Part shown: positions 11,294 to 53,126 of the stretch, one piece after another
Layout: each line of letters begins with the position of its first letter
Numbering within the stretch: position 1 is the first letter of the stretch
Assembly: GCA_964412775.1 (NCBI GenBank)
Contig: CAYPPX010000001.1
Location: forward strand, 1,122 to 65,121
DNA: 64,000 bases
Direction of reading: 5' to 3'
Source of the DNA: an uncultured Pseudomonadales bacterium
GTDB taxonomy: Bacteria; Patescibacteriota; Microgenomatia; UBA1400; PJMF01
Position numbers and translations under genes: made by a program
The notes under the pieces: model-generated
Told to the model about the DNA's origin: nothing
Database searches by the model: none
The model's input: only the letters and a program-made list of their open reading frames with translations

Positions 11294-13222
11294 ATGGAGC
11301 GTTTTCTTCAGCCTATCAAGTTCGTTTTTTCTCAGAACTCTAAAAAAAAGAGTTCTCAAGCTGTATTTATTGAGGAAAAACTAAATCCATTCAACCAAAA
11401 ACCCCCAAAAACTAACTACTTAGCTGGAGTTTCACTTATCACTGTTCTTTCAACTGCTCTCCTATTTATAGTTTACTCATCTAGCAAGTTTTTACCTGAA
11501 ACCTATGTTGAAGAAGTTAGGATCGGTGGGCTAACCAAAGAAGAAGCTATTCAAAAAATAACCAATCATTACCCCACTCCACCTGAACACACCATCACTC
11601 TTGGGTTTGATAGCCAATCATTTTTAGAACAGCAACCAGAAACACTTAGTAATTTTACTAATGAGTCTCTAAGTGTTACTACCAATTCGGCAGAATTAGC
11701 GGCTAGTTATGACTACCAAACAACCGTCAATGACATATTAACTAATCAACAAAAAAACAAATTAAATTGGTTAAAACAGTTAATTTTTGAACCAAATAAA
11801 CAAAAATTATTTGTTTTACCCATCAAATATGACTCAGACAAATTAAAACTCTTTGTACAAAACTTTAAAAATAAATTTGACCAGCCTCTAGATTTACCTA
11901 GGGTTAGTTTGGAGATCACAAATTCACCTCAGAGCTTAGTTTTAAATCCAGGTAGTAATACTTTAGCGATTGAACTTGATAAAACTTTGGAAAAAATAAC
12001 CACAGAACTAAGAGAAACTAGCCATTTAACTAATATTAAAAAACGACCAATCCTATCGTTAGAACCAGAATTAGTTTGGGCTAGCAAAACTTTAACTCCT
12101 GAAGAAAAAGTAACAGCTTTAAAAACTGCACAACAGTTAGTTGGAACTGAACTAACCCTTAAATACGATGTCATTACCAAAAAAATCAATGACCAGCAAT
12201 TAGTCTCATTTTTAACTTTTCCAACTGGTTTTATTGATGAAAAACTTGATGAACTAATTGATTCATGGAAAAAAGAACTTGATCGGCCAGCCAAAAATGC
12301 AGAATTTGAGTTTGATAAACAAAGTTTTATCGTTACCAAGTTTTCTCCAGATAGAGAAGGTCTTGCCCTTGATAAGGATCAACTTAAAACTTTGCTGAAA
12401 GAGACTATTAATAACTTGATGATCAACAACCAAGAAAAAACCAAAGAACTAACTTTACCTTTTGTAACTACCACTCCAGATTTAACTTTGGAAAAAACCA
12501 ATAACTTGGGTATTAACCAAAGAATTGGTTTTGGGGAAAGTTATTATGCTCATTCAATTCCAAGCAGAATTCATAACGTTGCTTTAGCAGCCAAAAGAAT
12601 TAATTATTCAATCATCGCGCCTGGCAAAGAATTCTCCTTTAATAAAGCCATTGGCGATGTTTCAGCTCAAACAGGTTTTCAATCAGCTTATGTGATTAAA
12701 GATGGCCAGACTGTCTTGGGCGATGGTGGTGGTGTGTGTCAGGTTAGTACTACTTTATTTAGAGCCCTGCTTAATGGGGGCTTAGATATTACTCTTAGGT
12801 TACCTCATAGCTATCGGGTCAGTTACTATGAACTTGATAACCAACCAGGATTTGATGCAACCGTTTATGATGGTAATGTAGATCTCAGGTTTATCAATGA
12901 TACGCCCAACTATATTTTAATTTACACTGAAACTGATAGTAATAACCTTTATATGAAAGTTGAACTTTATGGCACTAGTGATGGACGAACAGCCGAGATA
13001 TCTAATTACAAATCTTGGGGTTATAGCCCACCCCTACCTCCTGTTTATGTACCAGACCCATCTCTCCCTACTGGTAAATTAAAACAAATTGACTGGTCAG
13101 CTAGTGGGATTAAAGCAGAGTTTACTTATACAGTTAAAGATAAAAACGGTAAAATTATTAGAGAAAAAACTTACTACTCTAATTATCGACCTTGGGCAGC
13201 AAAGTATCTGCAAGGAATTTAA
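11294..13222 (+). CDS. VanW-domain protein, membrane-anchored
   Basis: N-terminal TM; C-terminal region with GDGGGVCQVSTTLFRALLNGG, typical of the VanW family. Confidence 0.6.
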   Translation: MERFLQPIKFVFSQNSKKKSSQAVFIEEKLNPFNQKPPKTNYLAGVSLITVLSTALLFIVYSSSKFLPETYVEEVRIGGLTKEEAIQKITNHYPTPPEHTITLGFDSQSFLEQQPETLSNFTNESLSVTTNSAELAASYDYQTTVNDILTNQQKNKLNWLKQLIFEPNKQKLFVLPIKYDSDKLKLFVQNFKNKFDQPLDLPRVSLEITNSPQSLVLNPGSNTLAIELDKTLEKITTELRETSHLTNIKKRPILSLEPELVWASKTLTPEEKVTALKTAQQLVGTELTLKYDVITKKINDQQLVSFLTFPTGFIDEKLDELIDSWKKELDRPAKNAEFEFDKQSFIVTKFSPDREGLALDKDQLKTLLKETINNLMINNQEKTKELTLPFVTTTPDLTLEKTNNLGINQRIGFGESYYAHSIPSRIHNVALAAKRINYSIIAPGKEFSFNKAIGDVSAQTGFQSAYVIKDGQTVLGDGGGVCQVSTTLFRALLNGGLDITLRLPHSYRVSYYELDNQPGFDATVYDGNVDLRFINDTPNYILIYTETDSNNLYMKVELYGTSDGRTAEISNYKSWGYSPPLPPVYVPDPSLPTGKLKQIDWSASGIKAEFTYTVKDKNGKIIREKTYYSNYRPWAAKYLQGI

Positions 13223-13379: not shown

Positions 13380-13727
13380 ATGAAAATTATTTCAATGAAA
13401 CAGCTGAGACAAAAATTCACCTCCATGCGGAAAGCTCTGGATCGTGGTGAGAGTTTTTTATTGATGTACAGGTCAAAACCACTAGCTGTAATTAGACCAT
13501 ACGAAGCCAATAAAGATATTCATCTGCTAGTGCCAGAAGAAGAAAAGCCACAGCTACCAACAGCAAAACCACTCAATAAATTACCTGAACCAAAAAATAT
13601 TGCGATTGAACCTAGAAATATCCCCCAACTACCTGCTACTAACGAAAAACTTTTAACTGCTAAAACTGCAACCACTCACACTAGTAAACCTCTTGATAAA
13701 TTTAAACTCAAAAAAGTTTTTGCTTAG
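13380..13727 (+). CDS. Phd/YefM-like antitoxin-domain protein with a Pro-rich C-terminal extension
   Basis: N-terminal ISMKQLRQKFTSMRKALDRGESFLLMYRSKPLAVIRP fits the Phd/YefM pattern (sxxexRxnlxxvl..gexvxItrrgkPvAVl); no toxin partner visible. Confidence 0.4.
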   Translation: MKIISMKQLRQKFTSMRKALDRGESFLLMYRSKPLAVIRPYEANKDIHLLVPEEEKPQLPTAKPLNKLPEPKNIAIEPRNIPQLPATNEKLLTAKTATTHTSKPLDKFKLKKVFA

Positions 13728-13759: not shown

Positions 13760-15520
13760 TTAGTTTTTGTGTTCAATGTTGAAAAATGCAAAGCTACTTT
13801 GAGGAATTCGCAAATAACCAGGAGCTCTCAAATTAAAAGTTTCCTTAAACTCACTCCCAGAAATAGAGATTGTGCCTTTATTAGTATTCAAAGTAACAGT
13901 TGCCGTTTGACCATTGCTATTATGGCTAACTGAAACACTAGAAATACTGGTAACAGCTCCACCAGAGTTATTGGCTTTATCTCTTAGTTCTGAAATCGAG
14001 TAAGGACTACCACCTTGGCCACCAATATTACACTCATTAATCGTCGTTGGAGTAATTTTGTTTAGATCAGCACCATTGGGATTTTTTCTAACAATCCAAG
14101 CATTGATGATGTCAGCAAACTCTTCTTGTGACAACCAGGGATGAGCTCTACCACAGCTAGCCCCAGAAGAAGAGTAACCGGAGCGATACCATGATTTGTA
14201 AAACCAAGGACTGCCCGCTTTATTTTCCCAAGCCCTAGTTGACCAATCACCAGAATTTGATTTATCGGTCGTGTCCCAATTACTAGTATTGCTGTAACCA
14301 CCATGCGTTGAAGCATATTGCGTGGAAACTGGATTTCCACTGCCATCAACTAACACCCAGTTTTTGGTTTCATTGACAGCCGTTTGCCAATTACCACCTT
14401 TGGGTGAATCTTTATAAACTTGGCAACTTTCAGTTGTACAAATTGATCTAGCACCATTATCAGTATATTTGATGGCAAAAGTTCTGGCCGCAATAGCTTG
14501 AGCCTTGAGAGCATTAAGTGGCCATGAGCCTGGCATTTCATAGATTCCTTGTAAATATTGATCTTCAAAAGACCGGCTTCCATAACCCTCCACATTAATT
14601 GAACTCATTTCAGCGTAATCTTTTTTAATCGTCGTTCCTGGATAATAAGCTGCCAGGATTTCTTCGACTGACTGACCTGCCTCTGCTCTAGCTTTAGCTC
14701 CATACTGACTCATACCATTGCGGTGGGTGTAAGCTCCAAAACTAAACACAGCAAAAGAATTACTGGGAGCTTGAGCTTTATAAGCAATTGAAGCGTTAAA
14801 GTCATCTGCCAAAGGCACCTCACCCACTGAAGTCGTATAAGTTCCAGAACGAGCATTAATAATTGCTTCCTGCTGAGCTGATAACGAAGCAATTTGACCA
14901 GCTAGATTGGTTTGATAGTTTTTGGCTTTACCAATCTCGACTTTAAAAAAACTAGCCTGGCTATCCAGTTGTTTCTCTAAACTTGCTAGTTTTAATTGAT
15001 CTTGTTCTAGTTTTTGTTTATCTGACTCAAGGGCTGTGATTTCATCAGTCAAAGATCTAATTAACCGATTGTCTTGTGCTTGAACTGAAGAGCTATAAGC
15101 TAAATTTTTAGTTAGTTTACTGGCATTACTACTATTAAAGAAAAGTAATAGTGGTGAAAAAGTTCTAGATCTTTTGTACTGTTGGGCAATTCTGTTAGAA
15201 AAAATAATGTACTGAACAGCGATATCATCTTCTCTATTCTCAATAGTTTTTTCTAACTCCTTAGTTTGGTTCTGGGCATTGATAATTCCTTGTCGAGCAT
15301 TAGTAATTTTTTTCTCCAAAGAACTAAGCTCTTGCTCAAGTGGTTTGGTAGCATCTTCTGACAGTTTTTTGAGTTGTTCTAGTTCATCAATTTGTCGTTG
15401 TAAGGTTTCGACAGGATCTTCTGCAAAAACCGGTTGGGAAAACAACTTTGAAAAACTCAAACTAGCACCAATCAACAGCAACAAAAACACTAAAGATAAT
15501 GATCTTTTTTGTCTAAACAC
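13760..15520 (-). CDS. SpoIID/LytB-domain secreted protein with an N-terminal coiled-coil
   Basis: Signal peptide, extended coiled-coil (repeated E/Q/L heptads), then LKAQAIAARTFAIKYT (SpoIID signature) and Cys/Trp-rich C-terminus. Confidence 0.55.
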   Translation of the reverse strand: MFRQKRSLSLVFLLLLIGASLSFSKLFSQPVFAEDPVETLQRQIDELEQLKKLSEDATKPLEQELSSLEKKITNARQGIINAQNQTKELEKTIENREDDIAVQYIIFSNRIAQQYKRSRTFSPLLLFFNSSNASKLTKNLAYSSSVQAQDNRLIRSLTDEITALESDKQKLEQDQLKLASLEKQLDSQASFFKVEIGKAKNYQTNLAGQIASLSAQQEAIINARSGTYTTSVGEVPLADDFNASIAYKAQAPSNSFAVFSFGAYTHRNGMSQYGAKARAEAGQSVEEILAAYYPGTTIKKDYAEMSSINVEGYGSRSFEDQYLQGIYEMPGSWPLNALKAQAIAARTFAIKYTDNGARSICTTESCQVYKDSPKGGNWQTAVNETKNWVLVDGSGNPVSTQYASTHGGYSNTSNWDTTDKSNSGDWSTRAWENKAGSPWFYKSWYRSGYSSSGASCGRAHPWLSQEEFADIINAWIVRKNPNGADLNKITPTTINECNIGGQGGSPYSISELRDKANNSGGAVTSISSVSVSHNSNGQTATVTLNTNKGTISISGSEFKETFNLRAPGYLRIPQSSFAFFNIEHKN

Positions 15521-15622
15521 AACTTCATTATATCGGCGACTTTACTGATAAGCTACGACTAGCTCAAATAAAGCGAAACATGTTAGAATATAAATCACTT
15601 AAACCAGATATAAATCTTAGTC

Positions 15623-16876
15623 ATGATTAAAATTAAACAATCATTTTTTGTTTCAGTTGGGAAAACTTTATTGAGTTTAGTCTTATCAGGTTTAGTTTTT
15701 GTTACCACCCCAGCCCCAGTTATGGCTGCTAGTTGTCGAGGAGTTTTGGCCGGGCCAGGCACAACCTTGCCTGCTTATCAAGACGGAGATACTCACACTG
15801 TTAAAATCGACATGAACAGCTATGACAAAAATCAATCTTTTTACTTAAAAGTTAAAAATACCTCTGGCACAGATGATGAAGCTCAGACCCCAACTTTCAA
15901 AATTGATAGAAATGGCACTTACCAAAATGGAGATGGGACTGTTACCGTCAGAAATGGCGTTGTTACCTGGGTAATTACTGACAAAGAAGCTCTAGAAAGC
16001 GCTCCTCTATCTGGAGAAAATGACACTCATTTTATTAAACTTTATGACCACGGGGCTGGCAGTAATGTTTTATGTGATGTTGGTACCTACGAAACCACCA
16101 AAAATACCACTGGTGGAAAATGTGCCCTTTATGTGTCTCAGAGTAGAACTGTTGGTGGTCAAAGTGCAACTTGTTATTCTAGTGGTTGTTTAGATACTGC
16201 TACGACTGATACCAAGATAGAAGTAGAAAAATTAGAAGATAATGAAGGTAAACCTTTTAATGGTAAAGTCAGATTCGTGATTAAGGGTGGTAGTACTCCA
16301 GATAAAATTGTTAATGCTAGTAACGGTAAAGCCTCAACGGTTTTTGCTGCAGATAATGAAACTAACTATGAAATTAAGGTTGAAATTGAACGAACTGGTA
16401 ATAACTTTGACTTTGCTGGTTGTTCAACTTCTTTTACAGCTGTAGACAAGTGTTCAGATGATACTTGTGATGAAATTAGAACTGATGTTTCTGGTAACGC
16501 CCTAGTTAAAAACTTTGAACTATGTGAACAAGTAACCCCAGATGATATCGGTAAATGCCAAGCTTGTTTTGGTGGAGAAAGTTACAATGGCCAAGCTGGA
16601 GTTTGGACAGCGATCGGTTGTATTCCAGCTAAACCAGATAGTATTATCAAGACTTTTATTACCATTGGTCTAAGTATTGGCGGTGGAGCAACATTTTTAT
16701 TAATTCTAGCTGGTGCCTTTAGACTTTCGGTCTCACAAGGAGATCCTCAAGCCACCAAAGATGCTAAAGAACAAATTTCTTCGGCTATAATTGGCTTAGT
16801 TTTCATTATTTTTTCAATTACCATGTTGAGATTTATAGGGGTCAACTTATTCCAGATTCCTGGTTTTGGAGGCTAA
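15623..16876 (+). CDS. Secreted Cys-rich protein with C-terminal pilin-like (VirB2/TrbC-like) two-helix module; candidate minor pilin or tip adhesin
   Basis: Signal peptide, ~20 Cys in the ectodomain. The C-terminus ITIGLSIGGGATFLLILAGAFRLSVSQGDPQATKDAKEQISSAIIGLVFIIF matches the hydrophobic-loop-hydrophobic layout of the pilin-like paralogs at 50-53 kb. Confidence 0.45.
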   Translation: MIKIKQSFFVSVGKTLLSLVLSGLVFVTTPAPVMAASCRGVLAGPGTTLPAYQDGDTHTVKIDMNSYDKNQSFYLKVKNTSGTDDEAQTPTFKIDRNGTYQNGDGTVTVRNGVVTWVITDKEALESAPLSGENDTHFIKLYDHGAGSNVLCDVGTYETTKNTTGGKCALYVSQSRTVGGQSATCYSSGCLDTATTDTKIEVEKLEDNEGKPFNGKVRFVIKGGSTPDKIVNASNGKASTVFAADNETNYEIKVEIERTGNNFDFAGCSTSFTAVDKCSDDTCDEIRTDVSGNALVKNFELCEQVTPDDIGKCQACFGGESYNGQAGVWTAIGCIPAKPDSIIKTFITIGLSIGGGATFLLILAGAFRLSVSQGDPQATKDAKEQISSAIIGLVFIIFSITMLRFIGVNLFQIPGFGG

Positions 16877-17309
16877 AACAATGACTAAAAAAATAATCAA
16901 AAGACTAGCTATCACTTCAACCGGTTTATTGGTCATGCTATTAACTGCTTCAAATGTCTTGGCAGCGACCGGCTTATCAGGTGCCGAAAACTCTTATGAG
17001 GTTACGTCTGATGTTTTGGATTCTTTTGACCCACTCAAGGTTGCCGGCTCACCTCAAGCTTCAACTTTATCTACTCCAGGTGGAATCATTAGTCGCTTAT
17101 TAGAATTTATCTTTCCTTTAGCTGGATTTGGTCTCTTTATCATGATTTTAGCTGGAGGCTTACAGATTTTAGCTGGAGCTACTAATGCCAAAGGCTTAGA
17201 AGAAGGTAAAAAAAGAGTCACTATGGCTATAGTTGGGTTTTTGATTTTATTTGCTTCTTACTGGATAGCTCAAATTCTTGAGGTGATTTTTGGGGTTAAT
17301 ATTGTTTAA
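16866..17309 (+). CDS. Pilin-like small membrane protein (VirB2/TrbC-like architecture)
   Basis: Signal peptide, hydrophobic helix (FIFPLAGFGLFIMILAGGLQIL), basic loop (KGLEEGKKR) and second helix (VTMAIVGFLILFASYWIA); start overlaps the preceding gene. Confidence 0.5.
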   Translation: MEAKTMTKKIIKRLAITSTGLLVMLLTASNVLAATGLSGAENSYEVTSDVLDSFDPLKVAGSPQASTLSTPGGIISRLLEFIFPLAGFGLFIMILAGGLQILAGATNAKGLEEGKKRVTMAIVGFLILFASYWIAQILEVIFGVNIV

Positions 17310-17324
17310 AACAACTAAATTTTT

Positions 17325-19994
17325 GTGTTCAATCACCAACCACTGAACAAATTTTCAAGGTATAATAGATGTGTGAAATTAAGTTATAAACTACTGTTAG
17401 TGTTTTCTTTGTTTTTTTTGTTAATGAGTCGAGTTTTTGAGGTTAAAGCTGCTTCTAGTGATGATTACGTCAACTATACTCGTCGTGATCCAGAAATGTA
17501 TAACTATCTACCACTCGTGATCGATGATGGTTATTCATTGGGTAATACCGGTGAACTTCAAGATATTATTACCTACCAAATGGCCTACAACCAAGGTTAC
17601 GAAGTCCAGTGTGCCAAACCAAAGTGGTGGCTTTGGGGACAAGTGCATGGTGATATTAAAGAATATTTTGAGGAATATGAAAAACCAGTTAGACTAACTT
17701 CAACTTCAGTTTATGAGGGTCAGTTTGCTGAAGGAAAAATTCCTCTCTTTCAAGGAGATGAAGACTTCAAAGATACTACTAAAATCTCTTCTTATGAGGG
17801 TTACTTTGGAGCAAAAAACCTAACCAAACAACCAGCTGAGTTAAATTCGGCCGGTGTAGCTACCACCCTTTTAACCAGAGAAGAACAATGTGTAGTTAAG
17901 TATAACAATTTGTACGAAGTCTATAACAAACTTTTCTGTGATAAATTTAAGGAAGGTTCTCCTTGTAAACTTAACCAAATTGACATTCCAGGCAGAGATT
18001 ATGGTGGCTGGATTCTTTTCGAAGCACTAAGAGATATTTTTGCCATTAAAAGTAAAACAGATCCAGACAAAAATTTCAGTTGTTATGAATTAATGCATGA
18101 GTGGTCTCCAGACATCGAAGAAGAGTTCGGCATTAGCCAATCAAAGTTTGAAAATGACATTAAGCCATTTGCTGAAGATATCAGTCTAGCCCCTCTCAAT
18201 ATGGAAGCTTTATATCGCTTGGCGTTTTTGGTTGTCTCAATTAAACAGAATGTGATGGAAGGCAACGAAGAAGTTGACCCAGCTCTTTTCCCTAGTAATG
18301 AAGATATCTTTGACTTTTTGGAAATCTCAACACCAGAACCAGTCTGGGGTGGAACTTTCGAAAGAATGCCCATTAAAAAAGAAGCTCCCATTGTGATTGG
18401 TTTCAAAGTCCCAATGACTGCTACCAACATGATCTTTTCTTTGCCTGGTTTAACTGATTCAGCCAGACTAACTTCATATCTCTTTAGTGAACCAGAAAGT
18501 ATTGCCAAACATATTGATGAAATGAAAGACCAAAGAAAAGAATACTTGGGGAATATTCTAGCTGTAAAAAAAGGCTTACCTGGCACCGATCCAGTCATCA
18601 ACTGTGGTGCTCTACCTCAATGTGTGGGTGATGATCCTAATAAAATTTTGCTTAGATCTTTAATTGACCAAATTAATGGTAGTGGTCTAGATTGTGGTGG
18701 CTTCGAAGGTTCTTATGAATTGGTATCTGAGTTGGGTTCTAGTGCTAATACTCCAGATAATACTAGAGAGCTAAGAGACCCCTACTTTTCCAAAGTCTTT
18801 ACTTCTGACGCATCCTATACTTTTGACTGGAACATTATTGTCAAAGATGAAGTGGTAAATGGCGACTTAGATGGCGATCCAATTGTAGCCAGAGCACATT
18901 TAGTTACACCTTATGGTAGTGATATGGAATACATCAACAAGGTTTTACGTCAAATGTTTACTGAAGATGAATTCAAAAAAATTGTAGAAAAAAACTGTGT
19001 TGAAGACTTTGATGGTAAGTGTGGAATTATTCCTGAAAACTTAACTTTTGTTAACACTACCGCAGAACTAAAAACCAAGCCAGATGTTTTTTCCTTTATT
19101 TACCATCAGCCACCAGGCTGTGTTGAGAAATGTCCAGAGGATGATAAATACTGTATTGAGTGCGAAAGAAAGAAAATGGCTGGAGTTGTTGTAGAGAACC
19201 CAATAGAACCAATGAGAATTCTAGGTGGCGAGCTAGGGTTTATGATTAGAAAAATTCAAGAAAATTTAAGAGATTATGGCTCAAGAGCTTGGGAATATAT
19301 TCATAACTGTAAACGTACTGAAGATTTATTCTTGGGACGATGTGAAGGTTATGATAGCGGGACTGATCCTACTGATGGTGAAGAATTAGCCTGTGAAGAA
19401 ATCAAAACTAGAACCACTAAATTACCAACTATGAATGAACTGATGAAAATGACTTGTAGTGTAGCTGGTAATGATCCGAACAATGCTCAGATGTTATGGG
19501 GCTTTTTACAAATTGAAGCCAGTCCAATGCTCAGAAAAATTAGAGAAGGAGCAAAAGAAATGAGTTGTGGTGAAATCGTCACTAATGCTTGTGGCGCTTC
19601 AGGCATTGTGGGGGTTTTAATCCCTCAATGTATCGATAAGGAAGGTTGTCCTCAAGCTGCTTATATTGCTGATGATAAAGATGACCCATGGATTCAAGAA
19701 GCGAGAAACAACCCTGATATTGCTTGCGATATCAAAACATCACTGGAATATATTCTAAGGAAAAGACTTTCAGAAAGAGGTTGGTTAGTAGAACAATACA
19801 AAGCTAAAAATGGAACAACCCCATCCACTCAACAACTTTATTATATGATGGCTGGACGTAATTATGGTGTTCCCACTGAATATTTGACAACACCTGCTTG
19901 TGCTGGCTATGAAGAAGTTCAAGGCTGTGGTGGAGCCAACTACTGTGTTTGTACTATGGATACATTCAAGTTGGATTGTGGAAATATTAAATAA
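17325..19994 (+). CDS. Large secreted Cys-rich protein (889 aa), hypothetical; candidate adhesin or effector of the adjacent pilus/T4SS-like system
   Basis: N-terminal signal/TM; >35 Cys spread along the length; no enzymatic motif recognised. Confidence 0.4.
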   Translation: MFNHQPLNKFSRYNRCVKLSYKLLLVFSLFFLLMSRVFEVKAASSDDYVNYTRRDPEMYNYLPLVIDDGYSLGNTGELQDIITYQMAYNQGYEVQCAKPKWWLWGQVHGDIKEYFEEYEKPVRLTSTSVYEGQFAEGKIPLFQGDEDFKDTTKISSYEGYFGAKNLTKQPAELNSAGVATTLLTREEQCVVKYNNLYEVYNKLFCDKFKEGSPCKLNQIDIPGRDYGGWILFEALRDIFAIKSKTDPDKNFSCYELMHEWSPDIEEEFGISQSKFENDIKPFAEDISLAPLNMEALYRLAFLVVSIKQNVMEGNEEVDPALFPSNEDIFDFLEISTPEPVWGGTFERMPIKKEAPIVIGFKVPMTATNMIFSLPGLTDSARLTSYLFSEPESIAKHIDEMKDQRKEYLGNILAVKKGLPGTDPVINCGALPQCVGDDPNKILLRSLIDQINGSGLDCGGFEGSYELVSELGSSANTPDNTRELRDPYFSKVFTSDASYTFDWNIIVKDEVVNGDLDGDPIVARAHLVTPYGSDMEYINKVLRQMFTEDEFKKIVEKNCVEDFDGKCGIIPENLTFVNTTAELKTKPDVFSFIYHQPPGCVEKCPEDDKYCIECERKKMAGVVVENPIEPMRILGGELGFMIRKIQENLRDYGSRAWEYIHNCKRTEDLFLGRCEGYDSGTDPTDGEELACEEIKTRTTKLPTMNELMKMTCSVAGNDPNNAQMLWGFLQIEASPMLRKIREGAKEMSCGEIVTNACGASGIVGVLIPQCIDKEGCPQAAYIADDKDDPWIQEARNNPDIACDIKTSLEYILRKRLSERGWLVEQYKAKNGTTPSTQQLYYMMAGRNYGVPTEYLTTPACAGYEEVQGCGGANYCVCTMDTFKLDCGNIK

Positions 19995-20010
19995 GTATTT
20001 TCAAAAAAAC

Positions 20011-20832
20011 TTACTTTTCAGTAACAATTTCAGGCTCAATAGTAATTTTCTTTTTTCTACCTCGTTTTTTCTTGACTACTAAAGAAATTTCTGTAGCATC
20101 AACTCGCTTGGTTCTTCTCGCCCCCATTCTCAAAAGTCGAGCAACTTTTTCAAAAGTCTCAGCAGTGGTAGTAAAAGATTGCAGATAATTAGTAGTGTGT
20201 TCAATTCCCATTAACAAAGCTGTTGCCATTGGCTCATTTATTACTAACTCCAAATTGTCAAACAAATCAATAATATTTTCACTCATGCTACTAGAGCCAG
20301 ACAGATCAAACTGAGTGGTACCAATTTCTGGCTTAAAGTTATGTAAAGTCACCACATAACTATTTTGGTAAAGACTTTCATAACCAAAATATAATTGTTC
20401 CAAACTTTCTAAATCATGAACGCCCACTAAAAAAACTAAATCAATATCTGTGCCCGCATAACCAAACTCAACTGATTTTGGATCAAGTGGTTTGATACCT
20501 TTTTTGGGTTTAATTGTTAAATAGAATTTTTTACTTTCCTCAGCAATGTGGTAACTAACTTTGTCGACTGCTTGTTCATCGTAATCAAAAGAAATAACCA
20601 AGTTTTGTTTACCTAGGTTGGTTTGCAACTCTTTTAAAGCCGAGAAATAATCATCACTAATTTTTTGGGGGGCATAAAAACCAACTTCTTTACCAACCGA
20701 CACACAACCATGAAACAAACTACTTGCTACAGCTAATTGGTCAACTGTTGGTTTTGGGCCTAAAATAATCGCAATTGACTCTGCTGATTGAAAGTACTCT
20801 TTGAGTGAATTGACTTGTTCTAGTGCTATCAT
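20011..20832 (-). CDS. Hypothetical protein; start refined to the internal Met (MIALEQVN...) to avoid overlap with the divergent gene
   Basis: The ORF-track version (to 20997) overlaps the plus-strand gene by ~100 bp and adds an unlikely hydrophobic leader. The Met at 20830-20832 follows a TATACT -10-like box. A GVHDLE segment only weakly recalls DHH phosphoesterases. Confidence 0.35.
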   Translation of the reverse strand: MIALEQVNSLKEYFQSAESIAIILGPKPTVDQLAVASSLFHGCVSVGKEVGFYAPQKISDDYFSALKELQTNLGKQNLVISFDYDEQAVDKVSYHIAEESKKFYLTIKPKKGIKPLDPKSVEFGYAGTDIDLVFLVGVHDLESLEQLYFGYESLYQNSYVVTLHNFKPEIGTTQFDLSGSSSMSENIIDLFDNLELVINEPMATALLMGIEHTTNYLQSFTTTAETFEKVARLLRMGARRTKRVDATEISLVVKKKRGRKKKITIEPEIVTEK

Positions 20833-20893
20833 TATGAGTAGTATAGTACATTTTTGATTACTTTTGTAGTATTTAAAGTTTGTTTTTGGGGTT

Positions 20894-22579
20894 TTGCTTT
20901 TTAATTTCTTGACGTACAATATTAAACAAATGAGGCAAATCACTAAGCTTGCTATTTTTGCCGTTTTCCTACTACTAGGTTCTGTTGTTGTTGCCAAACC
21001 AGTTCAAGCTTTTGATTTGGTTGAATGGTTTCAAGAAACTTTTAATATTCAGAAAAACCTCGATGATTCGATTAATGCTCAAGTTAGAGCTTCAGAAGAA
21101 GGTGATGTTACTTTAACTTCTCTGGTACCCAATGTTGGTGGTGAAACTAGAAATGACCTACTTTTGGTTGCTGCTGGTGTACCTAAGGTTGAAAACAGTC
21201 CAGCACTACAAAGTATGACTGAAGAACAAAGAAAAATTGTTTATGAAAGATACGGTCGAGGCTTAATTGGTGACTCAGTTAATGCTGTAGCAATGCTTTA
21301 TACTCCTCCAGCTTCTGGTACAGTCTATGTTGCAGAACTGCTTAGATCTGCTCACATTATTCCTCAAGCCCATGCCCAAGGGTTAGGTTTTTCTGCCTTA
21401 GACCCAGTTTTAGAAACTTGGAAAGTCTTTAGAAACATTGCCTACCTATTTTTTGTAGTCGTATTTTTGGCAATAGGCTTAATGATTATGTTCCGTCAAA
21501 AAATTGGTGGCCAAACTGTGGTTACTGCTCAACAAGCTATACCAGGCATTATTGTCTCTTTAATTACCGTTACCTTCTCTTATGCTATTGCTGGATTTTT
21601 GATCGATTTAATGTACTTAATTATGTACTTAATGATTGGTTTATTTAGTCCTCAATCTGGTACAGAAATCATCAGTAAAAACTTTTTACAAATTGGTTTT
21701 GATGTAGTTACTGGGGTTAACACTAATGGGGCCTTTTCTAGTATGAACGAAGCTGTTAAAACCTTTGCTTCTTCAATCGATACTAGTGCCATTGGTGAAG
21801 TCTTGGGGTGGATTGGTGGTGTGACCATGGGCTTAATTGTTTCGATTGCTATTTTGATTGGTGTTTTCAAACTCTTTTTTGAACTACTCAAGATTTACAT
21901 TACTATTATTATTGCTATTGTGGTCAGTCCAGTTTTATTAATGATGGGAGCTATCCCAGGTAAAAGTAACTTTGGATATTGGGTTAAACTAGTCTTTGGT
22001 AACCTACTAGCTTTTCCAATGGTTCTATTTTCTTTAATTCTTTATGAGATGTTTACTAGTGGTGACCTTTCTGCCGGTGGCTTTATGCCTCCTTACTTGA
22101 TTGGTCGTGGATCTGGTAGTGTGATGATGACCTTGGTGGGAATCGGTATTATCATGATCATTCCAGAATTAATTAAAGAAATGAAAAAAGCCCTCAAAAT
22201 CGATGGTGGTATTTGGGAAACCTTGGCCTTCAAAGCTGTTGATCAAACCAAAGAAGGTCTTAGATACGGTGTACCAGGTGCCTACGTGGCTGGTGGCGCT
22301 ATTGGTGATACAGCCAAAGGTATCTGGGCTGGTAGAAAGAATCTTAAGACTATTCCTGGCAATGTTTATAGAAACGTTACTCAAAATGTTGGAGACAACC
22401 TTAGAAGAGGTAACCAGGCCGCCGCTAGTATTGAAAATGTGTTAGAAGGTAAGTTTAAAGATCCAAACAGTTGGGAGAACTTAATGCTCAGAAACCAACT
22501 AGAAGAACAAGAAAAACGTAGAAAAGAAGAAAAAGAACGACGCAGACAAAAAGTTAGAAGACCAAGACCAAACGGCTAG
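20894..22579 (+). CDS. Polytopic membrane protein, VirB6/TrbL-like candidate
   Basis: Signal peptide plus >=6 hydrophobic helices in the central region and a charged C-terminal tail (KRRKEEKERRRQKVRR); architecture and position in a VirB4-containing cluster. Confidence 0.35.
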   Translation: MLFNFLTYNIKQMRQITKLAIFAVFLLLGSVVVAKPVQAFDLVEWFQETFNIQKNLDDSINAQVRASEEGDVTLTSLVPNVGGETRNDLLLVAAGVPKVENSPALQSMTEEQRKIVYERYGRGLIGDSVNAVAMLYTPPASGTVYVAELLRSAHIIPQAHAQGLGFSALDPVLETWKVFRNIAYLFFVVVFLAIGLMIMFRQKIGGQTVVTAQQAIPGIIVSLITVTFSYAIAGFLIDLMYLIMYLMIGLFSPQSGTEIISKNFLQIGFDVVTGVNTNGAFSSMNEAVKTFASSIDTSAIGEVLGWIGGVTMGLIVSIAILIGVFKLFFELLKIYITIIIAIVVSPVLLMMGAIPGKSNFGYWVKLVFGNLLAFPMVLFSLILYEMFTSGDLSAGGFMPPYLIGRGSGSVMMTLVGIGIIMIIPELIKEMKKALKIDGGIWETLAFKAVDQTKEGLRYGVPGAYVAGGAIGDTAKGIWAGRKNLKTIPGNVYRNVTQNVGDNLRRGNQAAASIENVLEGKFKDPNSWENLMLRNQLEEQEKRRKEEKERRRQKVRRPRPNG

Positions 22580-22712: not shown

Positions 22713-25700
22713 TTAAGCTCTAGTATCTTCGCTGACAGCCTCACTCTCCCAAGGGGCTTCAAATAAAAGTGGCTCACCATTAGGTAACTCTTTAGACCAA
22801 TTAAATGGTAAAAGCTTGCCCAAGAAGTTCTTTAAACCAAATTTAAACTCAACTTTATATTGCCATAAAGCTCTTAAGTAATTTAAAACCTTAAGATCAT
22901 ATTGGTATTCAACCATCTCTTTAACGTGGTAACCATCCATATATTTATGGACAAAGTCTTTGGTGGCTTGAGGCACACCACCCGCAGCATCCAGTTGTTT
23001 AAGCATAATATGTCTGAGCATATCAACCTCATCAACATTGGTTGCATTTGAATACATATGACTTAAGCGATGCATCATTCTGACGGTAAATGGTCCAAAT
23101 AATAAATGATGTCTTCCTGGTACAAGTTTTGCTTTACCAATAATTTTGTCTAACCATTCAATAAATTTGTGTTCAACCTCATCAAAACTTATCTCCTTTT
23201 GTTCTTGCATAAAGGCTTTGTTAAATTTCTCTAAAGCTTTAAAACTCACGGTCATATATTGATCAACAGTTAACCTAGTAAGCTGTGGAATACCAATATC
23301 ATTCAAACTTTTACCATAACCAAGTAAGTTGGCTTCTTCAGTGAAAGCAGCAATAGCTCTATCTTTGGCTGGCCCATCATCCATGGCCATCAAGTCTCGT
23401 TTTCTTTGTTCCATTTTCAAAATATTAATTGTGACTTCTCCTGGCAAAGGGAAAAAGTTGGAATTCAAATCCAACCTAGTTTCTGGCAAAGGATCTCTAG
23501 CAGTCGAGAAACCCATTAAGTCTCTAGTGTCCTTAACCCATTTTGGAATATTGTCCCAAACGGCTTGTCTATATTTATCAATAATATGCCATAGCTCTTT
23601 GATACTATGCATTTTATTATGTTTAGGATGACCACTACCATCATACTCGACCATTCCTACCAGATCTTTTTCATGAATATACAAAAGTTCTTCTGAGTTG
23701 GCTTTAGGTAAGTTATCTCCATATCTATTTCTGGAGTATTGGCCAGCTGCAAACGGAGCTGCCACAAATAATTCATCAGAAAATTCTTGTTTTCTAAGCC
23801 CAGTTAAAGCCAGTCCGTGAGCTCTGGTAGTAGCATGCATTAACCAAGGCACATAACCAGCAGATTTTGCAGCCATAGCTTGAGAATACTTAATCAGTTC
23901 TCCAAGTAATTTAGGATCAATATCGGCAAATTTTTGTTTTAAATGCTTGATAAAGTCACTCAGACGATCATTAAGTAAGTTGTTATAAGAGTAATCTTTT
24001 CGACCGAGTGGATCACTAGGATTTTCTGGGTCATAATTTAAGCCACCCCACTCTGGTTTACCCTTAATTCTTTGAACAATGTACTCATAAACCTCAATTG
24101 CCCGCATATTAATTTCTGCTTTATCCATATCTTCAGCAGTTAATGGGCCTTTTTTCTCTGGTCTTTTTAAGAAAAGGGCTCTAGCAATATTATTAAAGTC
24201 AACACCTTTATCTGCTAGCTCCACCATAATTGAGTCAAAACCAATATCAAAACCTTTGACACCAGTATCTCCAGCTGTCATCACAGCCTGTAAACCTCTT
24301 CTAACCCGATACCAAGATTCAAGTTGTTTATCTTCAACACTGCCAATTAATTCAAAATAACGTGCATTTAAGTCTCTTAAACGATCAGTTGGAACAATAG
24401 CTTCAGCAATTTCATCAATTACTTCTTCAATATCCATTTCATAAGGGTCTTTTTGCTTTTCAACCAAGCCCAATGATTTCAAATATCTCTCAGAAGTAAA
24501 TTTCCCAAGGCTGTCAATTTGTTTTCTAATCTCTAAATGAAGCAAAGATAATAACTCATTGGCTTTTTCATAGTCTACTGAGTCTGGATCTTTGACCAAT
24601 GACATTTCTTTTAAGTAGGCAGCATATTCACCATCATCAAGGTCTGCTGGTTTATTTCTGTAACCAATAGGAATACCCTTAACTTCTTTTTCCATCACAT
24701 CAGAGCTAATCGATTGAACTCTCTTGGCAGACTTAGATAAATAAAACAAAAGCTTTTCTAGTTTTTCTCTTTCTTTATCAGTAAGCTTAGCACCACCTTT
24801 GGCTGTTAGTTCTCTAGCAAATTTTTCTGCTAATCTCAAAGCATCAACTACCAGAATGTTGGTTGTATCTGCCTCTCCTCTTTCTGTTGATAAACTAAGT
24901 CCATCACCAATACTAACTCTGTTTAGGTTAAAGAAACTTTCAATTTCTCTAAGATTTTCTTTAGTACCTTTATCCTTAAAATCTTTGGCTCTTGGCTTTT
25001 CATCTAACATCAGTTCTATTTGATGAATAACTTTTTCTGCTTGATCAAAGAGCTCAGCATCAATCCTGGCTAACAAAGCACTGTTTTTTCTGGAACCTAC
25101 AAATTTTCTAGACTTAACTAATAAGTCACTCAACTCACTTCTTCTAGTTTCTAGGTTGTTCCAAGAATTTTTTCTAGGCAAAGTCTGAGACAATAGATCT
25201 TTCAAATTAGTCAAGTCTTCACTGTCAGCAAAAGCTTGTTGGTAAGCCTCTTCTGTAGAAAGGTTGTCAACATAAGCCTGCATTTTTTCTAAAAGTGCTT
25301 TAGCTGGAATAATAAAACGCTTAATTAGTTCAATTCTTTCTTTTCTTAAAGTAGTTGTTTGAATACTCTTGTAGTCATAAACTTCTTCCAACTCTTCAAT
25401 ATTAGTTTGGAGAAACTGAAGATAACTAGTTGGTGGAATAAATCCTGGTACCAGAGCTCTTGGATCAAGCCCAGTTGCATCACCAGTAAAAGCGTCGTTA
25501 ATCTCACGATATTTTTCTTCAAAAACTAATAGATCTTCAGGAATTTCAGTCTCTGCCTCTTCTTTAGATTCTTCTGAAGAAGTTAGACCTAAAATCTTTT
25601 TTTGTTCTTTAGATAAAAGTGGTTCAATCTCTGCAATATAGTTACCAATCAGGTTCATTATTGTTTGTACAGAGTTAAGAATATCTTCTGGTGAGTTTAG

Positions 25701-28036: not shown

Positions 28037-28084
28037 AGAAAAGCTAATGCGTTTCCATCTGGTAAAGGATATAATAGCTGATAG

Positions 28085-50174: not shown

Positions 50175-50585
50175 TTACCAGTTAGTATCTGCTGTTGGGA
50201 TTGAAAATTGCAGAATGCTTTTAACACCAGTAAATTCGGCAATTAAATTTAAGATAATAAATGAACTGAGGGCTACCACTAAGCCAACTACAGCAAAGGT
50301 AATAGAGCTTTTGGATTTTTCAACGGCTTGAGAATTACCACCGGAAAGCATAATTCTAATTCCAGAAACAACTAGCATTATAAAACCAGCAATACCAATG
50401 ATGGTTAAAAAGTTACTTAAAAGTCTGGCTAATAAACACTGAAAACCTTGAATAGTTGCAACATCAGTATGAGTGTCATCAACACAGACACCAGTCCATT
50501 GAGCACTGGCTGGTAAAGCAGCCAGTAAGAAGATTAAGTTGGTAGTGATGAAACCAATAATTCTAGTGGAGTATTTTTTTAACAT
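50175..50585 (-). CDS. Pilin-like small membrane protein, divergent member of the array (VirB2/TrbC-like architecture)
   Basis: Signal peptide, helix 1, loop SGGNSQAVEKSKSS, helix 2; same layout as the downstream paralogs. Confidence 0.45.
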   Translation of the reverse strand: MLKKYSTRIIGFITTNLIFLLAALPASAQWTGVCVDDTHTDVATIQGFQCLLARLLSNFLTIIGIAGFIMLVVSGIRIMLSGGNSQAVEKSKSSITFAVVGLVVALSSFIILNLIAEFTGVKSILQFSIPTADTNW

Positions 50586-50629
50586 AATTTAAGTCAAAAA
50601 TTCGTTGTTAATGGCATTATACATCAGAA

Positions 50630-50662
50630 ACTAAAAACCCCACACCTTAAAGCGTGGGGTTT
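50630..50662 (-). terminator. Rho-independent terminator after the pilin array (hairpin CCCCAC/GTGGGG plus T-run on the minus strand)
   Basis: Minus-strand reading: AAACCCCACGCTTTAAGGTGTGGGGTTTTTAG. Confidence 0.5.
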
Positions 50663-50684
50663 CTTGATTACTTTTTTGAAGTCT

Positions 50685-51089
50685 TTATTTACCAGTAATA
50701 CTTTTGGTGTTAAAGACATCATTGAGGTCTGAGAAGCCAAGGAAGTTCAAGGCAAGGGTCAAGACTGCATATGAAGCAGCCACCACGATCAAACCAATGA
50801 TAGCTGAAGTGATTTTGTTTCTAGCAGCTTCAGTTTTACCTTTGTCACCACCACTAGTAATCCATTCGATACCACCCCAAATGAGATAGAGGAAAACTAA
50901 CAAAGCAGCAATTACCATCACAAAACTTAAGACACCATTAATCAAACCACCAAAATCAGTGGCAAAACCTTTACCTGGGTCTACGTTAGTATCAGTAATC
51001 TTGGTGGCAGCAGCTACTGGTAAAACACTAGTAGCCAAACCACTAAGGGCAACTCCGGTGGAGAGAGCAAATTTTTGAATTTTGTTCAT
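50685..51089 (-). CDS. Pilin-like protein paralog (VirB2/TrbC-like), conserved EWITSGGDKGKTEAARNKIT loop
   Basis: Signal peptide plus two hydrophobic helices around the GIEWITSGGDKGKTEAARNKITSAIIGLIVVAAS core; nearly identical to the core of the next gene. Confidence 0.55.
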   Translation of the reverse strand: MNKIQKFALSTGVALSGLATSVLPVAAATKITDTNVDPGKGFATDFGGLINGVLSFVMVIAALLVFLYLIWGGIEWITSGGDKGKTEAARNKITSAIIGLIVVAASYAVLTLALNFLGFSDLNDVFNTKSITGK

Positions 51090-51174
51090 ACTTTTCCTTT
51101 TAAATTTTTATTCCTTAATAATCTACTTGTTAATTGTATCAAGAATTTACCTGATTCGTCAAAAAAAGATTTTT

Positions 51175-51516
51175 CTAGCAACTTCCATCAAAGCTTAGTA
51201 CACAAATTCCCAAGAAACTTTGCAATAACATAAAGATAGCAGTAGTGGCAGCTAAAACAATTAAACCAATAATTGCTTGAGTGATTTTATTTCTAGCAGC
51301 TTCAGTTTTACCTTTGTCACCACCACTAGTAATCCATTCAATTGCTCCCCAAAGCAAAAAAATTAAGACCATTACGGCTGCGATAACCATGATGCCTCCC
51401 ATTAAGCCACCAAGTAGAGTGCCAAAGTTTTTTTGAGGATCAGCACTAACAGCTCCTGGCAAGTTGCCTTGGGCAGCTCCTGATAAGTCTAGTGTAGCAG
51501 CAATGGTTTTATTCAT
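51175..51516 (-). CDS. Pilin-like protein paralog (VirB2/TrbC-like)
   Basis: Core AIEWITSGGDKGKTEAARNKITQAIIGLIVLAAT. Confidence 0.55.
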   Translation of the reverse strand: MNKTIAATLDLSGAAQGNLPGAVSADPQKNFGTLLGGLMGGIMVIAAVMVLIFLLWGAIEWITSGGDKGKTEAARNKITQAIIGLIVLAATTAIFMLLQSFLGICVLSFDGSC

Positions 51517-51519
51517 AAT

Positions 51520-51933
51520 TTAATTTGGATCCGGAACGTTAATTTGTAAGACACTAAAGGTATCACCAAAGAAAATTTCACCAATAAAGCCAATAATTGC
51601 ATATGAACCAACCAAAACAACTAGACCAATTACGGCTTGAGTAATTCTGTTTCTAGCATTTTCGACCTTGCCTTTATCGCCACCACTACCAATCCATTCA
51701 ATTGCTCCCCAAACAAAGAAGATCAAAACTGTAATAGCACCAATACTAATTAAGGCATTCCAAAAGAAAATAAAGTATTCAGCAAAAGTACTGCCAGAAG
51801 CAGCTTCTTTTGAACCACTACCATATTTACCACTAACAACGGGGTTAGTTATTTCAGCTTTGACTGGGCTAGCCAAAAAAAGTCCTAATAGAAAAGTGTT
51901 GATGGCTGTTGATATTTTGGTTAGTTTTTTCAT
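51520..51933 (-). CDS. Pilin-like protein paralog (start refined to the internal Met MKKLTKIS)
   Basis: Core AIEWIGSGGDKGKVENARNRITQAVIGLVVLVGS; the longer ORF-track start would overlap the upstream paralog. Confidence 0.5.
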   Translation of the reverse strand: MKKLTKISTAINTFLLGLFLASPVKAEITNPVVSGKYGSGSKEAASGSTFAEYFIFFWNALISIGAITVLIFFVWGAIEWIGSGGDKGKVENARNRITQAVIGLVVLVGSYAIIGFIGEIFFGDTFSVLQINVPDPN

Positions 51934-51937
51934 ATTT

Positions 51938-52309
51938 TTAAATAGAGTCAACAATTGTTTGAATTTGTTCTGCTGGATTAAGTAAGTCAATACCAATGAA
52001 GCTACCCAGTAAACCAAGAATAGCGTAAGAAGCCACAATAATAACCAAACCAATGGCTCCGTTCATCATTCTAGTTCTGGCTTTTTCGGTTTTACCTTTA
52101 TCACCACCACTAGTAATCCATTCAAAGGCACCAAGCACAAAATAGATAACAAAAAAAACAGTTCCAATAGTGGTCATGAAACCAATGATATTTGAAATGA
52201 AAAGTTCTAGGTTTGACAAAGCCCCACCAGCAGTATTAGAGCCTTTACTGTAAGCTTCGGTAGGTGGTTTGAATCCACCAATGTCGATTGTTTTTTGTGC
52301 TAATTGCAT
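51938..52309 (-). CDS. Pilin-like protein paralog
   Basis: Core AFEWITSGGDKGKTEKARTRMMNGAIGLVIIVAS. Confidence 0.55.
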   Translation of the reverse strand: MQLAQKTIDIGGFKPPTEAYSKGSNTAGGALSNLELFISNIIGFMTTIGTVFFVIYFVLGAFEWITSGGDKGKTEKARTRMMNGAIGLVIIVASYAILGLLGSFIGIDLLNPAEQIQTIVDSI

Positions 52310-52312
52310 GTT

Positions 52313-52744
52313 TTATACTCCTTGGATCTTTGGATTTAAGATATATGAGGCATCTCCAAAGAAAACTAAACCGATGATGGCTGCTAAAGTATATGAGCCA
52401 ACGATAATCGCTAAACCAATCACGCTGTTGGTCATCATATGAGAAGCATCAGTATGAGCTTTGCTATCACCAGAAGAAGTAATATATTTCCAGCCAGCCA
52501 AAATAAAGTTGAGCATGACCCAAACACCAGCCACTGTGGTAGCCAATCTAATGCCATTTGAGGCAAAAAGTAGTAAACCACCACTTTGGAGATCACCATA
52601 TTTGTCAACTCCAGCAGGTGGTTTAATGGAACCAAAAACACCTCCAGCAGCAGCTCCAGAAGGAGCTGGAGTAGCAGCAAAAACTTGTTTAACATTTAGG
52701 AGTAAAAGACTTAAGCTAAGGAATATTTGGTTTATTCTTTTCAT
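52313..52744 (-). CDS. Pilin-like protein paralog (divergent loop SSGDSKAHTDASHMMT)
   Basis: Signal peptide, two hydrophobic helices, weaker match in the loop. Confidence 0.5.
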   Translation of the reverse strand: MKRINQIFLSLSLLLLNVKQVFAATPAPSGAAAGGVFGSIKPPAGVDKYGDLQSGGLLLFASNGIRLATTVAGVWVMLNFILAGWKYITSSGDSKAHTDASHMMTNSVIGLAIIVGSYTLAAIIGLVFFGDASYILNPKIQGV

Positions 52745-52787
52745 TTTCTCTGGATATTCTATTACTTTCTTTATTTTTTAGCTAGTT

Positions 52788-53126
52788 TTAGATTCTAATG
52801 TCTGCTCCGGTGACAAGCTTAATTGCTTGAACAGCCCAGTAGGCAGCAAACATCACTGAAAAACCAATCACTGCATTTTTGAAGATAGTTAAAGCTTGGT
52901 CTTTACCTTTGGCAGTATCAGAAATGTAGTAGTAACCAGCCATAATAATCATCACAAAAATAATAATTCCACTAACCATAAACATGTTTGGTACGATTAA
53001 ATTAACCAAGTCAGCTGGGGTTTTATAAACATCTTTAACAGCTCGACCATCACCCAAAGTTAGGGTAGAGCCCAAATCAACTCCTCCAGCACCAATATTT
53101 TGAGCAGCAAGTAAAGTATTTAGCAT
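52788..53126 (-). CDS. Pilin-like protein paralog (most divergent; loop SDTAKGKDQALTIFKNAVIG)
   Basis: Same two-helix layout with a KGK-containing loop; first gene of the array. Confidence 0.45.
   Translation of the reverse strand: MLNTLLAAQNIGAGGVDLGSTLTLGDGRAVKDVYKTPADLVNLIVPNMFMVSGIIIFVMIIMAGYYYISDTAKGKDQALTIFKNAVIGFSVMFAAYWAVQAIKLVTGADIRI

Follow-up and report, generated by a model that had tools for sequence, protein, structure and literature searches.

A Predicted VirB2-Like Pilin With a Cysteine-Rich Ectodomain in a Conserved Pilin Locus of Patescibacteria

Genes and Features of the Locus

We analyzed a window of 64,000 nucleotides (~35% G+C) from contig CAYPPX010000001.1 of an uncultured bacterium (GenBank assembly GCA_964412775.1; positions 1,122 to 65,121), which is placed in the Microgenomatia by the GTDB and whose nearest database proteins come from Patescibacteria metagenome-assembled genomes (MAGs) labelled Pacebacteria, Paceibacterota, or Woesebacteria. 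The subject of this report is a run of three genes encoding a 417-aa protein, a second pilin, and a large secreted protein. We call the 417-aa protein the “fusion pilin”: it appears to be a VirB2-like pilin (Pfam: PF18895) of a type IV secretion system (T4SS), with its mature N terminus extended by ~300 exported residues. A first reading of the DNA alone (the original prediction) had listed three same-strand open reading frames (ORFs) here, and all three are present with the coordinates it gave. The features of the run are as follows.

15623..15727, plus strand: signal peptide of the fusion pilin (aa 1-35, predicted cleavage between VMA and AS), hydrophobic over aa 7-37 and a helix at 4-26 in the AlphaFold2 (AF2) model
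15728..16108, plus strand: ectodomain D1 (aa 36-162), a beta-sandwich with Cys38 and Cys151; AF2 strands with a predicted local distance difference test score (pLDDT) of 85-95
16109..16447, plus strand: ectodomain D2 (aa 163-275), a beta-sandwich with Cys167, Cys184, Cys189, and Cys267; AF2 strands with pLDDT 80-92
16448..16633, plus strand: Cys-rich linker or stalk (aa 276-337) with Cys277, Cys282, Cys301, Cys312, Cys315, and Cys333; AF2 confidence 52-70
16634..16834, plus strand: predicted VirB2-like pilin module (aa 338-404), helix-short polar loop-helix, PF18895
16835..16876, plus strand: C-terminal tail (aa 405-417) and stop, motif (I/L)PGFG(G/E/S/Q)
16881..17309, plus strand: second pilin, 142 aa from ATG 16881, PF18895, with a signal peptide, a short Cys-free N-terminal region, and a hairpin, ending in FGVNIV
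17373..19373, plus strand: large protein, signal peptide and core (aa 1-667 of 873); fold of the core not recognised, AF2 moderately confident
19374..19994, plus strand: large protein, C-terminal domain (aa 668-873, 12 Cys), helical, probably of a lysozyme/lytic-transglycosylase-like fold

Family Membership of the C-Terminal Hairpin

Hydropathy and the AF2 model both place two hydrophobic helices at the C terminus of the 417-aa protein (338-370 and 375-404 in the model), and the loop between them reads SQGDPQATKDAKEQ. Residues 351-404 match PF18895 (T4SS_pilin) with 30.2 bits (E 4.9e-7), above the gathering cut-off of 26.6 bits, as does the product of the following gene, in agreement with the standalone pilin-like protein of the original prediction (26.9 bits, a score for the 147-aa longest ORF and not for the 142-aa form); precomputed database annotation agrees with the assignment. 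From a segment corresponding to residues 356-398, the original prediction had also proposed a likeness to pilin paralogs elsewhere in the window:

50175..53126, minus strand: array of seven small pilin paralogs, all seven matching PF18895 and five of them above the cut-off

This likeness goes beyond chance. A profile of the seven paralogs scores 40.4 bits against the C terminus of the 417-aa protein and 54.6 bits against the 147-aa ORF, compared with 12.0 bits for the best of 1,000 composition-matched shuffles, and the alignment of fusion pilin, second pilin, and array reveals a common loop motif, (S/T)xGD...A(K/R)xxI(T/S)xAxIGL. We regard it as highly improbable that the pilin likeness is a chance hydrophobic one and the three genes unrelated neighbours. 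The hairpin is indeed short and hydrophobic, and the Pfam scores lie only a few bits over the cut-off (30.2 and 26.9 vs. 26.6), but the separation from the shuffles, the loop motif visible in the alignment, and a gene order kept in dozens of species (described below) all stand against such an accident, and it was rejected on the shuffle control and the conserved order. The alignments support the C-terminal module as a genuine member of the T4SS_pilin family.

Hydropathy, AF2, and alignment further give the 417-aa protein the layout of VirB2-type pilins, with a predicted signal peptide, two hydrophobic helices, and a short polar loop, and it is encoded in the company of T4SS genes (VirB4, TrsD-like, PrgI-like, and VirD4-like, all in the window). 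It departs from small pilins in size: these are essentially a hairpin of roughly 60-120 aa, as is the 142-aa neighbour, whereas the mature 417-aa protein spans ~380 aa, ~300 of them ectodomain.

Within the array, ORFs 51520-52053 and 51938-52309 (minus strand) overlap, as the 177-aa paralog is called from too early a start in its longest ORF; its likelier start is an internal Met before the signal-like segment MKKLTKISTAINTFLLGLFLASPVKA.

The Cysteine-Rich Ectodomain

The 417-aa protein begins with a signal-like segment (TTPAPVMA followed by ASC), as originally proposed, and the small-residue site before the first Cys is conserved in 33 full-length homologues (28-88% identical). We count 12 Cys in it rather than the ~20 of the original prediction, all of them C-terminal to the predicted cleavage site and 12/12 invariant or nearly so across the same homologues. 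The Cys content of the 417-aa protein (2.9%) and of the large protein (3.2%) compares with 0.35% in the other 50 ORFs of the window, an enrichment of ~8-9-fold over the rest of the window proteome, and the Cys counts of both proteins are even (12 and 28). Signal segments on the two proteins indicate that these Cys-rich products are exported and not cytoplasmic.

The AF2 model of the 417-aa protein (mean pLDDT 79) consists of a signal helix, two beta-sandwiches, a linker, and the helical hairpin. Searched with Foldseek against the PDB, it retrieves exclusively generic tandem Ig-like matches at E ~1e-5, namely filamin, intimin D0-D1, the invasin InvE, the FimC chaperone, and complement MG domains; a PDB profile search with the fusion-pilin family gave no match. 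The model supports an ectodomain of two tandem Ig-like beta-sandwiches, a shape common in adhesins. In the linker that follows, Cys312 and Cys315 form a CxxC, a GVWTAIGCIP motif directly precedes the first membrane helix, and C277, C301, C312, C315, W328, T329, A330, G332, and C333 are invariant in the 33 homologues, as are P413, G414, F415, and G416 of the tail. The (I/L)PGFG(G/E/S/Q) ending recurs in almost all of the 83 fusion pilins from the loci described below.

The PGFG tail is not present in the array pilins or in the second pilin. We considered it as a PGF-CTERM/archaeosortase or sortase signal and set this aside by reasoning: it lies after the membrane helix, at the extreme C terminus, and is not LPXTG.

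Conservation rises step by step along the protein, from a mean pairwise identity of 27% in D1 and 29% in D2 to 40% in the Cys-rich linker, 61% in the hairpin, and 71% in the tail, the pattern expected of a variable binding head on a conserved assembly module. Short-form homologues (~285-315 aa) are without D1 and mostly have 10 Cys instead of 12; the loss of two Cys together with D1 suggests a C38-C151 pair. When the ectodomain was used by itself as a query for unfused copies, five proteins came back, all of them pilin-fused, with a sensitivity limited by the word index such that absence is not proven. The fusion of ectodomain and pilin appears to be an old and fixed architecture and no recent accident.

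Gene Order Across Relatives

Relatives of the fusion pilin are encoded in at least 290 species genomes (Pacebacteria and Woesebacteria), and two sequence patterns, one of them G[VI]WTA[IV]GC[IV], find more than 599 stretches in species-representative genomes. We fetched 84 loci, 80 of them from species-representative genomes, and annotated them with profiles built from the window. The recurrent order is a SpoIID gene on the opposite strand, the ectodomain-pilin gene, and a second pilin gene, continuing in one of two ways. In type A (25 loci, with the arrangement of the window), a member of the large-protein family (which we call p889) is followed by an opposite-strand gene and a gene for a 561-aa membrane protein. 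In type B (26 loci, i.e., about as frequent), the second pilin is followed by a run of 6-11 small pilin paralogs; in one fully read Woesebacteria locus, a p889-family protein comes after the pilin array. Of the 68 loci with enough upstream DNA, 60 have the SpoIID gene at most 600 bp ahead of the fusion pilin, and at least seven of the remaining eight also list one upstream. In at least 72 of 78 loci, the fusion pilin is followed by a pilin gene with a conserved FG(I/V)x(I/V)(L/F) end.

These comparisons change how the locus is to be described. The original prediction had called it a second pilin locus; a pilin locus it is, but not a second one, since it corresponds to the conserved head of the pilin locus, which in Woesebacteria-type genomes has the array directly after it. 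In the window the array appears to have been displaced by ~30 kb from this conserved head.

Many of the carrier MAGs (those of loci L005, L009, and L011 among others) bear the title “uncultured Pseudomonadales bacterium”; there is also one “Limisphaerales” and one “candidate division TM6”. In view of their gene content, such titles look like mislabels and not like real occurrence outside the Patescibacteria.

The Second Pilin

The original prediction had the start of the second pilin overlap the preceding stop, which proves to be an artefact of calling the longest ORF (from TTG 16866). A GGAGG at 16868-16872 lies 8 nt upstream of ATG 16881, inside the region counted as coding from TTG 16866, and an independent public gene call likewise gives 142 aa, so the most likely start is ATG 16881, without overlap. 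A match of the second pilin to VKOR (17.6 bits vs. a cut-off of 27.5) was taken as hydrophobic noise.

Across the 25 type-A loci, the lengths of fusion pilin and second pilin are inversely related (Spearman -0.82). Fusion pilins of ~410 aa with 12 Cys pair with a second pilin of ~150 aa that is mostly Cys-free, and those of ~290 aa with ~10 Cys pair with one of 190-360 aa that contains 6-24 Cys. The relation is probably a two-clade effect and not the result of independent events. Some type-B loci carry a D1-like domain on the second pilin.

The Large Secreted Protein

The third gene encodes a secreted protein, as originally proposed, with one N-terminal signal-like hydrophobic segment and no other transmembrane segment. 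Its longest ORF runs from GTG 17325 (889 aa), and it most likely starts at GTG 17373 (873 aa), as in an independent public gene call; this start drops Cys16 of the 889-aa ORF and leaves 28 Cys instead of 29, short of the more than 35 previously claimed. A TATAAT lies just upstream of GTG 17373 (17361-17366), and a promoter and terminator scan of 15300-21100 performed no better than on shuffles.

Profile searches of Pfam, NCBIfam, and the PDB, with both the whole family and the C-terminal domain, gave no sequence match, and a Foldseek search of the PDB with the 873-aa model gave no significant one. We identified 18 close and 3 distant homologues. The ~600-aa core is common to longer proteins (1110-1241 aa), including the 1241-aa protein encoded behind the pilin array of Woesebacteria (hhalign probability 99.9%, E 3e-36), and some of these longer proteins end in Pfam SLT_3 where the window protein has its 200-aa, 12-Cys domain; three other remote family members match GH5 cellulase. 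Remote relatives of the large protein are 1100-1350 aa long and, in their version of the C-terminal domain, have a clearer GA(V/T)GP(M/L)QI motif than the window protein.

The predicted structure of the C-terminal domain appears to match lysozyme and lytic-transglycosylase folds, which the Foldseek search did not bear out at significance. In a profile search of 1.8 billion representatives, the domain was found in just 40 clusters, almost always at the C terminus of similar large proteins, and the wider alignment contains the motifs LLWGxxQIE(G/A)S, CGA(S/V)G(P)xQI, and YxMAGRxYG, which by eye, and not significantly, resemble the ES, GLMQ, and AYNAG motifs known from lytic transglycosylases of family 1. 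As candidate catalytic Glu we propose E715 (19515-19517, motif LQIEAS), a position that is acidic (E or D) in almost every one of 31 family members. Pairwise comparisons by hhalign are non-significant, both with the SLT_3 regions of distant homologues (probability 0.1%) and with Escherichia coli Slt70/EmtA (E 0.05, probability 1%), E715 falling opposite the AIESGG catalytic-Glu motif of EmtA in the latter. We consider the domain a probable lysozyme-like wall hydrolase.

The original prediction had proposed a large adhesin or effector. The predicted fold of the C-terminal domain, together with SLT_3 and GH5 in distant kin, speaks against an adhesin, and the protein is more likely a VirB1-like wall hydrolase or a wall-degrading effector. 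Between these two, we think it unlikely that the 873-aa protein is mainly a secreted effector or toxin that digests the host wall or polysaccharide, as opposed to a VirB1-like helper for the producer's own wall. A gene order that stays fixed within the pilin/VirB6 block over wide divergence is typical for parts of a machine, VirB1 and TraG of pIP501 provide the standard precedent for transglycosylases dedicated to a T4SS (PMC12102498), and an immunity gene next door, which would favor a toxin, is not evident. The VirB1-like and host-directed roles are compatible with each other.

Neighbouring Genes and T4SS Setting

The wider setting of the locus in the window is as follows.

3050-5227: VirD4-like, Pfam library matches
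13760..15520, minus strand: SpoIID-domain protein, 586 aa, with an N-terminal hydrophobic segment; PF08486 E 9.9e-16; divergent from the ectodomain-pilin gene
20011..20997, minus strand: conserved gene between the large-protein and VirB6-like genes; no signal peptide
20894..22579, plus strand: polytopic membrane protein, 561 aa, Cys-free, at least six hydrophobic segments; candidate VirB6/TrbL-like
32680-33732, plus strand: PrgI/VirB3-like, Pfam PrgI
33783-34931, plus strand: TrsD-like, 382 aa, NCBIfam TrsD
34961-37081, plus strand: VirB4
37196 (start): dnaA, with dnaN, rnpA, yidC, and other housekeeping genes also in the window

The core assignments rest on the Pfam models PrgI, CagE_TrbE_VirB, P-loop_TraG, TrwB_AAD_bind, and Bac_DnaA, and together they indicate a T4SS of the monoderm type near dnaA. 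A dnaA-adjacent T4SS with VirB2-like pilins and pilin arrays has been described for the Patescibacteria (Quinonero-Coronel et al. 2025; PMC12102498), and the pilin array is essential in Southlakia epibionticum (PMC10633639). The same survey of Patescibacteria T4SSs did not find a PrgB-type adhesin, often found VirB1 homologues missing, and reports VirB6 to be scarce in Microgenomatia (PMC12102498). We likewise detect no VirB5 and no PrgB-type adhesin in the window system.

The 561-aa protein, whose gene lies ~4 kb downstream of the fusion pilin (~900 bp beyond the large-protein gene), is our candidate for a VirB6-like channel subunit. It matches the Mycoplasma membrane proteins Mbov_0396 and MMCAP2_0566, of integrative and conjugative elements (ICEs), weakly in NCBIfam (E ~1e-4, below cut-off), and one of its 21 orthologues has a TrbL/VirB6 Pfam match (E 5e-6; listed as weak in precomputed annotation); the protein itself has no Pfam match, PF04610 included, and its family profile has none in the PDB. 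The opposite-strand gene at 20011-20997 has a homologue at the same position in 25/25 type-A loci. Since the longest ORF reaches into the beginning of the 561-aa gene, the real start is probably internal, giving ~271 aa; the product has no Pfam match and solely sub-threshold PDB matches (a pilus-anchoring protein at E 0.037 and a RecJ-like one at E 0.09).

Upstream of the SpoIID gene, type-A loci further contain a VanW/PG_binding_4 protein (11294-13222, plus strand, in the window). With SpoIID and VanW/PG_binding_4 genes beside the fusion pilin, the pilin head is embedded among wall-remodelling genes. Between these two genes lies a small protein (13380-13727, plus strand) whose match to the Phd/YefM antitoxin is weak (E 4e-4, below cut-off) and which we do not link to the pilin locus; locus L001 has a 114-aa gene in the equivalent slot.

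Several large proteins without a family match are encoded between the VirB6-like gene and the VirB3/VirB4 block (22713-26069, minus strand; 26378-32639, plus strand). They measure 1118 aa (Cys-free, no transmembrane segment noted), 552 aa, 1192 aa (its C terminus weakly matching M23 peptidase; counted with the T4SS genes), and 329 aa. A homologue of the 1118-aa protein follows the VirB6-like gene in a few other loci. Near the VirD4-like gene is a sortase-domain protein (1101-1949, minus strand), which we do not link to the pilin locus.

Relation to Known Systems

Patescibacteria T4SSs, their PF18895 pilins, the pilin arrays, and the proximity to dnaA are already known (PMC12102498, PMC10633639, PMC12857230), and NCBI already labels some homologues of the 417-aa protein “pilin”. 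The VirB2/TrbC/TraA-type pilins of PF18895, such as those of the S. epibionticum and TM7x arrays (PMC10633639, PMC12102498), have the same signal peptide, two helices, and polar loop, and in Patescibacteria they too are clustered with VirB4 and VirB6-like genes near dnaA, with several paralogs per genome. To this plan the fusion pilin adds an N-terminal extension of ~300 residues, made up of two Ig-like domains and a stalk with six Cys, as well as the fixed PGFG tail, and it is far more conserved than the array pilins. In the literature we searched, we found no description of a pilin with a tandem Ig-like, disulfide-rich ectodomain, of a fixed pairing of such a pilin with a second pilin and a SpoIID gene, or of a p889 family with a lysozyme-like domain.

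VirB5 (at the T-pilus tip) and the PrgB adhesins share the proposed role in host or recipient contact and are encoded with their machines. We found no sequence or fold relation between them and the fusion pilin, VirB5 being a helical bundle and PrgB an LPXTG wall-anchored protein, whereas the adhesin-like domains of the fusion pilin are covalently part of a pilin-family protein. The large protein, compared with VirB1, TraG of pIP501, PrgK, TcpG, and SLT/SLT_3 proteins, does not significantly match SLT, SLT_3, or any PDB chain by sequence; its domain has 12 Cys and a ~650-aa core before it, and it is not joined by a CHAP or amidase domain. In the Mycoplasma ICE, the models of three proteins match weakly: Mbov_0395 to the fusion-pilin hairpin (23 vs. 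a cut-off of 40 bits), Mbov_0396 to the 561-aa protein (21 vs. 70 bits), and the VirB4 model Mbov_0397, in its N-terminal part, to the 382-aa TrsD-like protein (28 vs. 590 bits). The two systems have the monoderm T4SS lineage in common, and the mycoplasma pilin-like protein is small, with no ectodomain.

A Possible Host-Contact Module

We lean toward reading the locus as the conserved head module of the chromosomal monoderm-type T4SS of a Microgenomatia-type Patescibacterium, in which the fusion pilin displays a host-contact element. VirB2/TraA pilins have both ends outside the cytoplasmic membrane, and in the F- and T-pilus the termini lie on the outside and the loop points into the lumen. 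With this both-ends-out topology, an N-terminal ectodomain would point away from the hairpin polymer. The fusion pilin would be exported by Sec and its signal peptide cut; the hairpin would remain membrane-embedded in the VirB2/TraA manner, its two ends on the outside, and the 12 Cys could form up to six disulfides, with oxidation possible outside the cell. Genes for an MdbA-like oxidoreductase and VKOR, which serve exported disulfides, are enriched in the genomes of the CPR (candidate phyla radiation; bioRxiv 10.1101/335083). The hairpin would then be handled by the same T4SS platform as the small pilins (the VirB6-like protein and VirB4), the 142-aa pilin serving as its fixed partner, such that the Ig-like domains would be shown outside or at the end of a pilin polymer or stalk as a host-contact adhesin, supplying the element that the published survey did not find (PMC12102498). 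The lysozyme-like domain of the 873-aa protein, presumably stabilised by disulfides, and the SpoIID-like enzyme might act as hydrolases that open peptidoglycan for the apparatus, and the wall opened may be the cell's own (a VirB1-like role), the host's, or both.

Several observations weigh against this picture. With a 30-kDa ectodomain on each of its subunits, a VirB2-type filament could probably not pack, which makes a bulk subunit unlikely and calls for a rare or terminal position; a terminal or sparse position, like that of VirB5 on the T-pilus, would be the most economical. Neither the fusion pilin nor the second pilin or the array paralogs match PF04956 (TrbC/VirB2) at E <= 0.01, and the net charge of the hairpin loop is acidic, not basic. 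The Ig-like Foldseek matches are generic (E ~1e-5; template modelling score at most 0.29 by query and 0.40 by target) and point to no particular relative or ligand. No disulfide-forming enzyme was found within the window. Finally, no T4SS pilus has been seen in Patescibacteria to date, and PMC12857230 treats one as a possibility.

Some of the same facts would suit a different arrangement, in which the hairpin is a mere membrane anchor and the fusion pilin is a surface receptor or adhesin that may dock on the T4SS and is never polymerised or carried outward. Monoderm T4SSs are normally without a pilus (PMC12102498, PMC12857230), the ectodomain is large next to any known VirB2-type pilin, and the 61-71% identity of hairpin and PGFG tail, set against ~25% within arrays (PMC12102498), fits a fixed docking contact. 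However, the fusion gene always comes first in a run of pilin genes of the same family, a simple anchor would need neither a conserved two-helix pilin module nor a dedicated partner pilin, and two Ig domains plus a stalk (~300 aa) might not cross the cell wall unless lifted. We judge the anchor arrangement, the main rival, unlikely.

Within the host-contact reading that we favor, a more specific version can be put forward tentatively: the fusion pilin and its partner pilin might nucleate or cap the pilin polymer, replacing the function of VirB5 or PrgB, with the lysozyme-like exoprotein and the SpoIID-like enzyme cutting walls.

Significance

Patescibacteria make up a large share of bacterial diversity, and the only species with workable genetics requires the T4SS and its pilins to grow on its host. 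The locus supplies candidates for three gaps, namely a pilin-anchored Ig-like adhesin, a lysozyme-like exoprotein, and a VirB6-like membrane protein, all of them within a gene order that hundreds of species keep. With its variable distal domain attached to a conserved assembly module, the fusion pilin would offer a testable marker of host range. If the more specific version of the host-contact reading is true, the fusion pilin would be the first among T4SS pilins to come with its own binding domain and would provide a direct handle on host recognition in uncultivated CPR bacteria.

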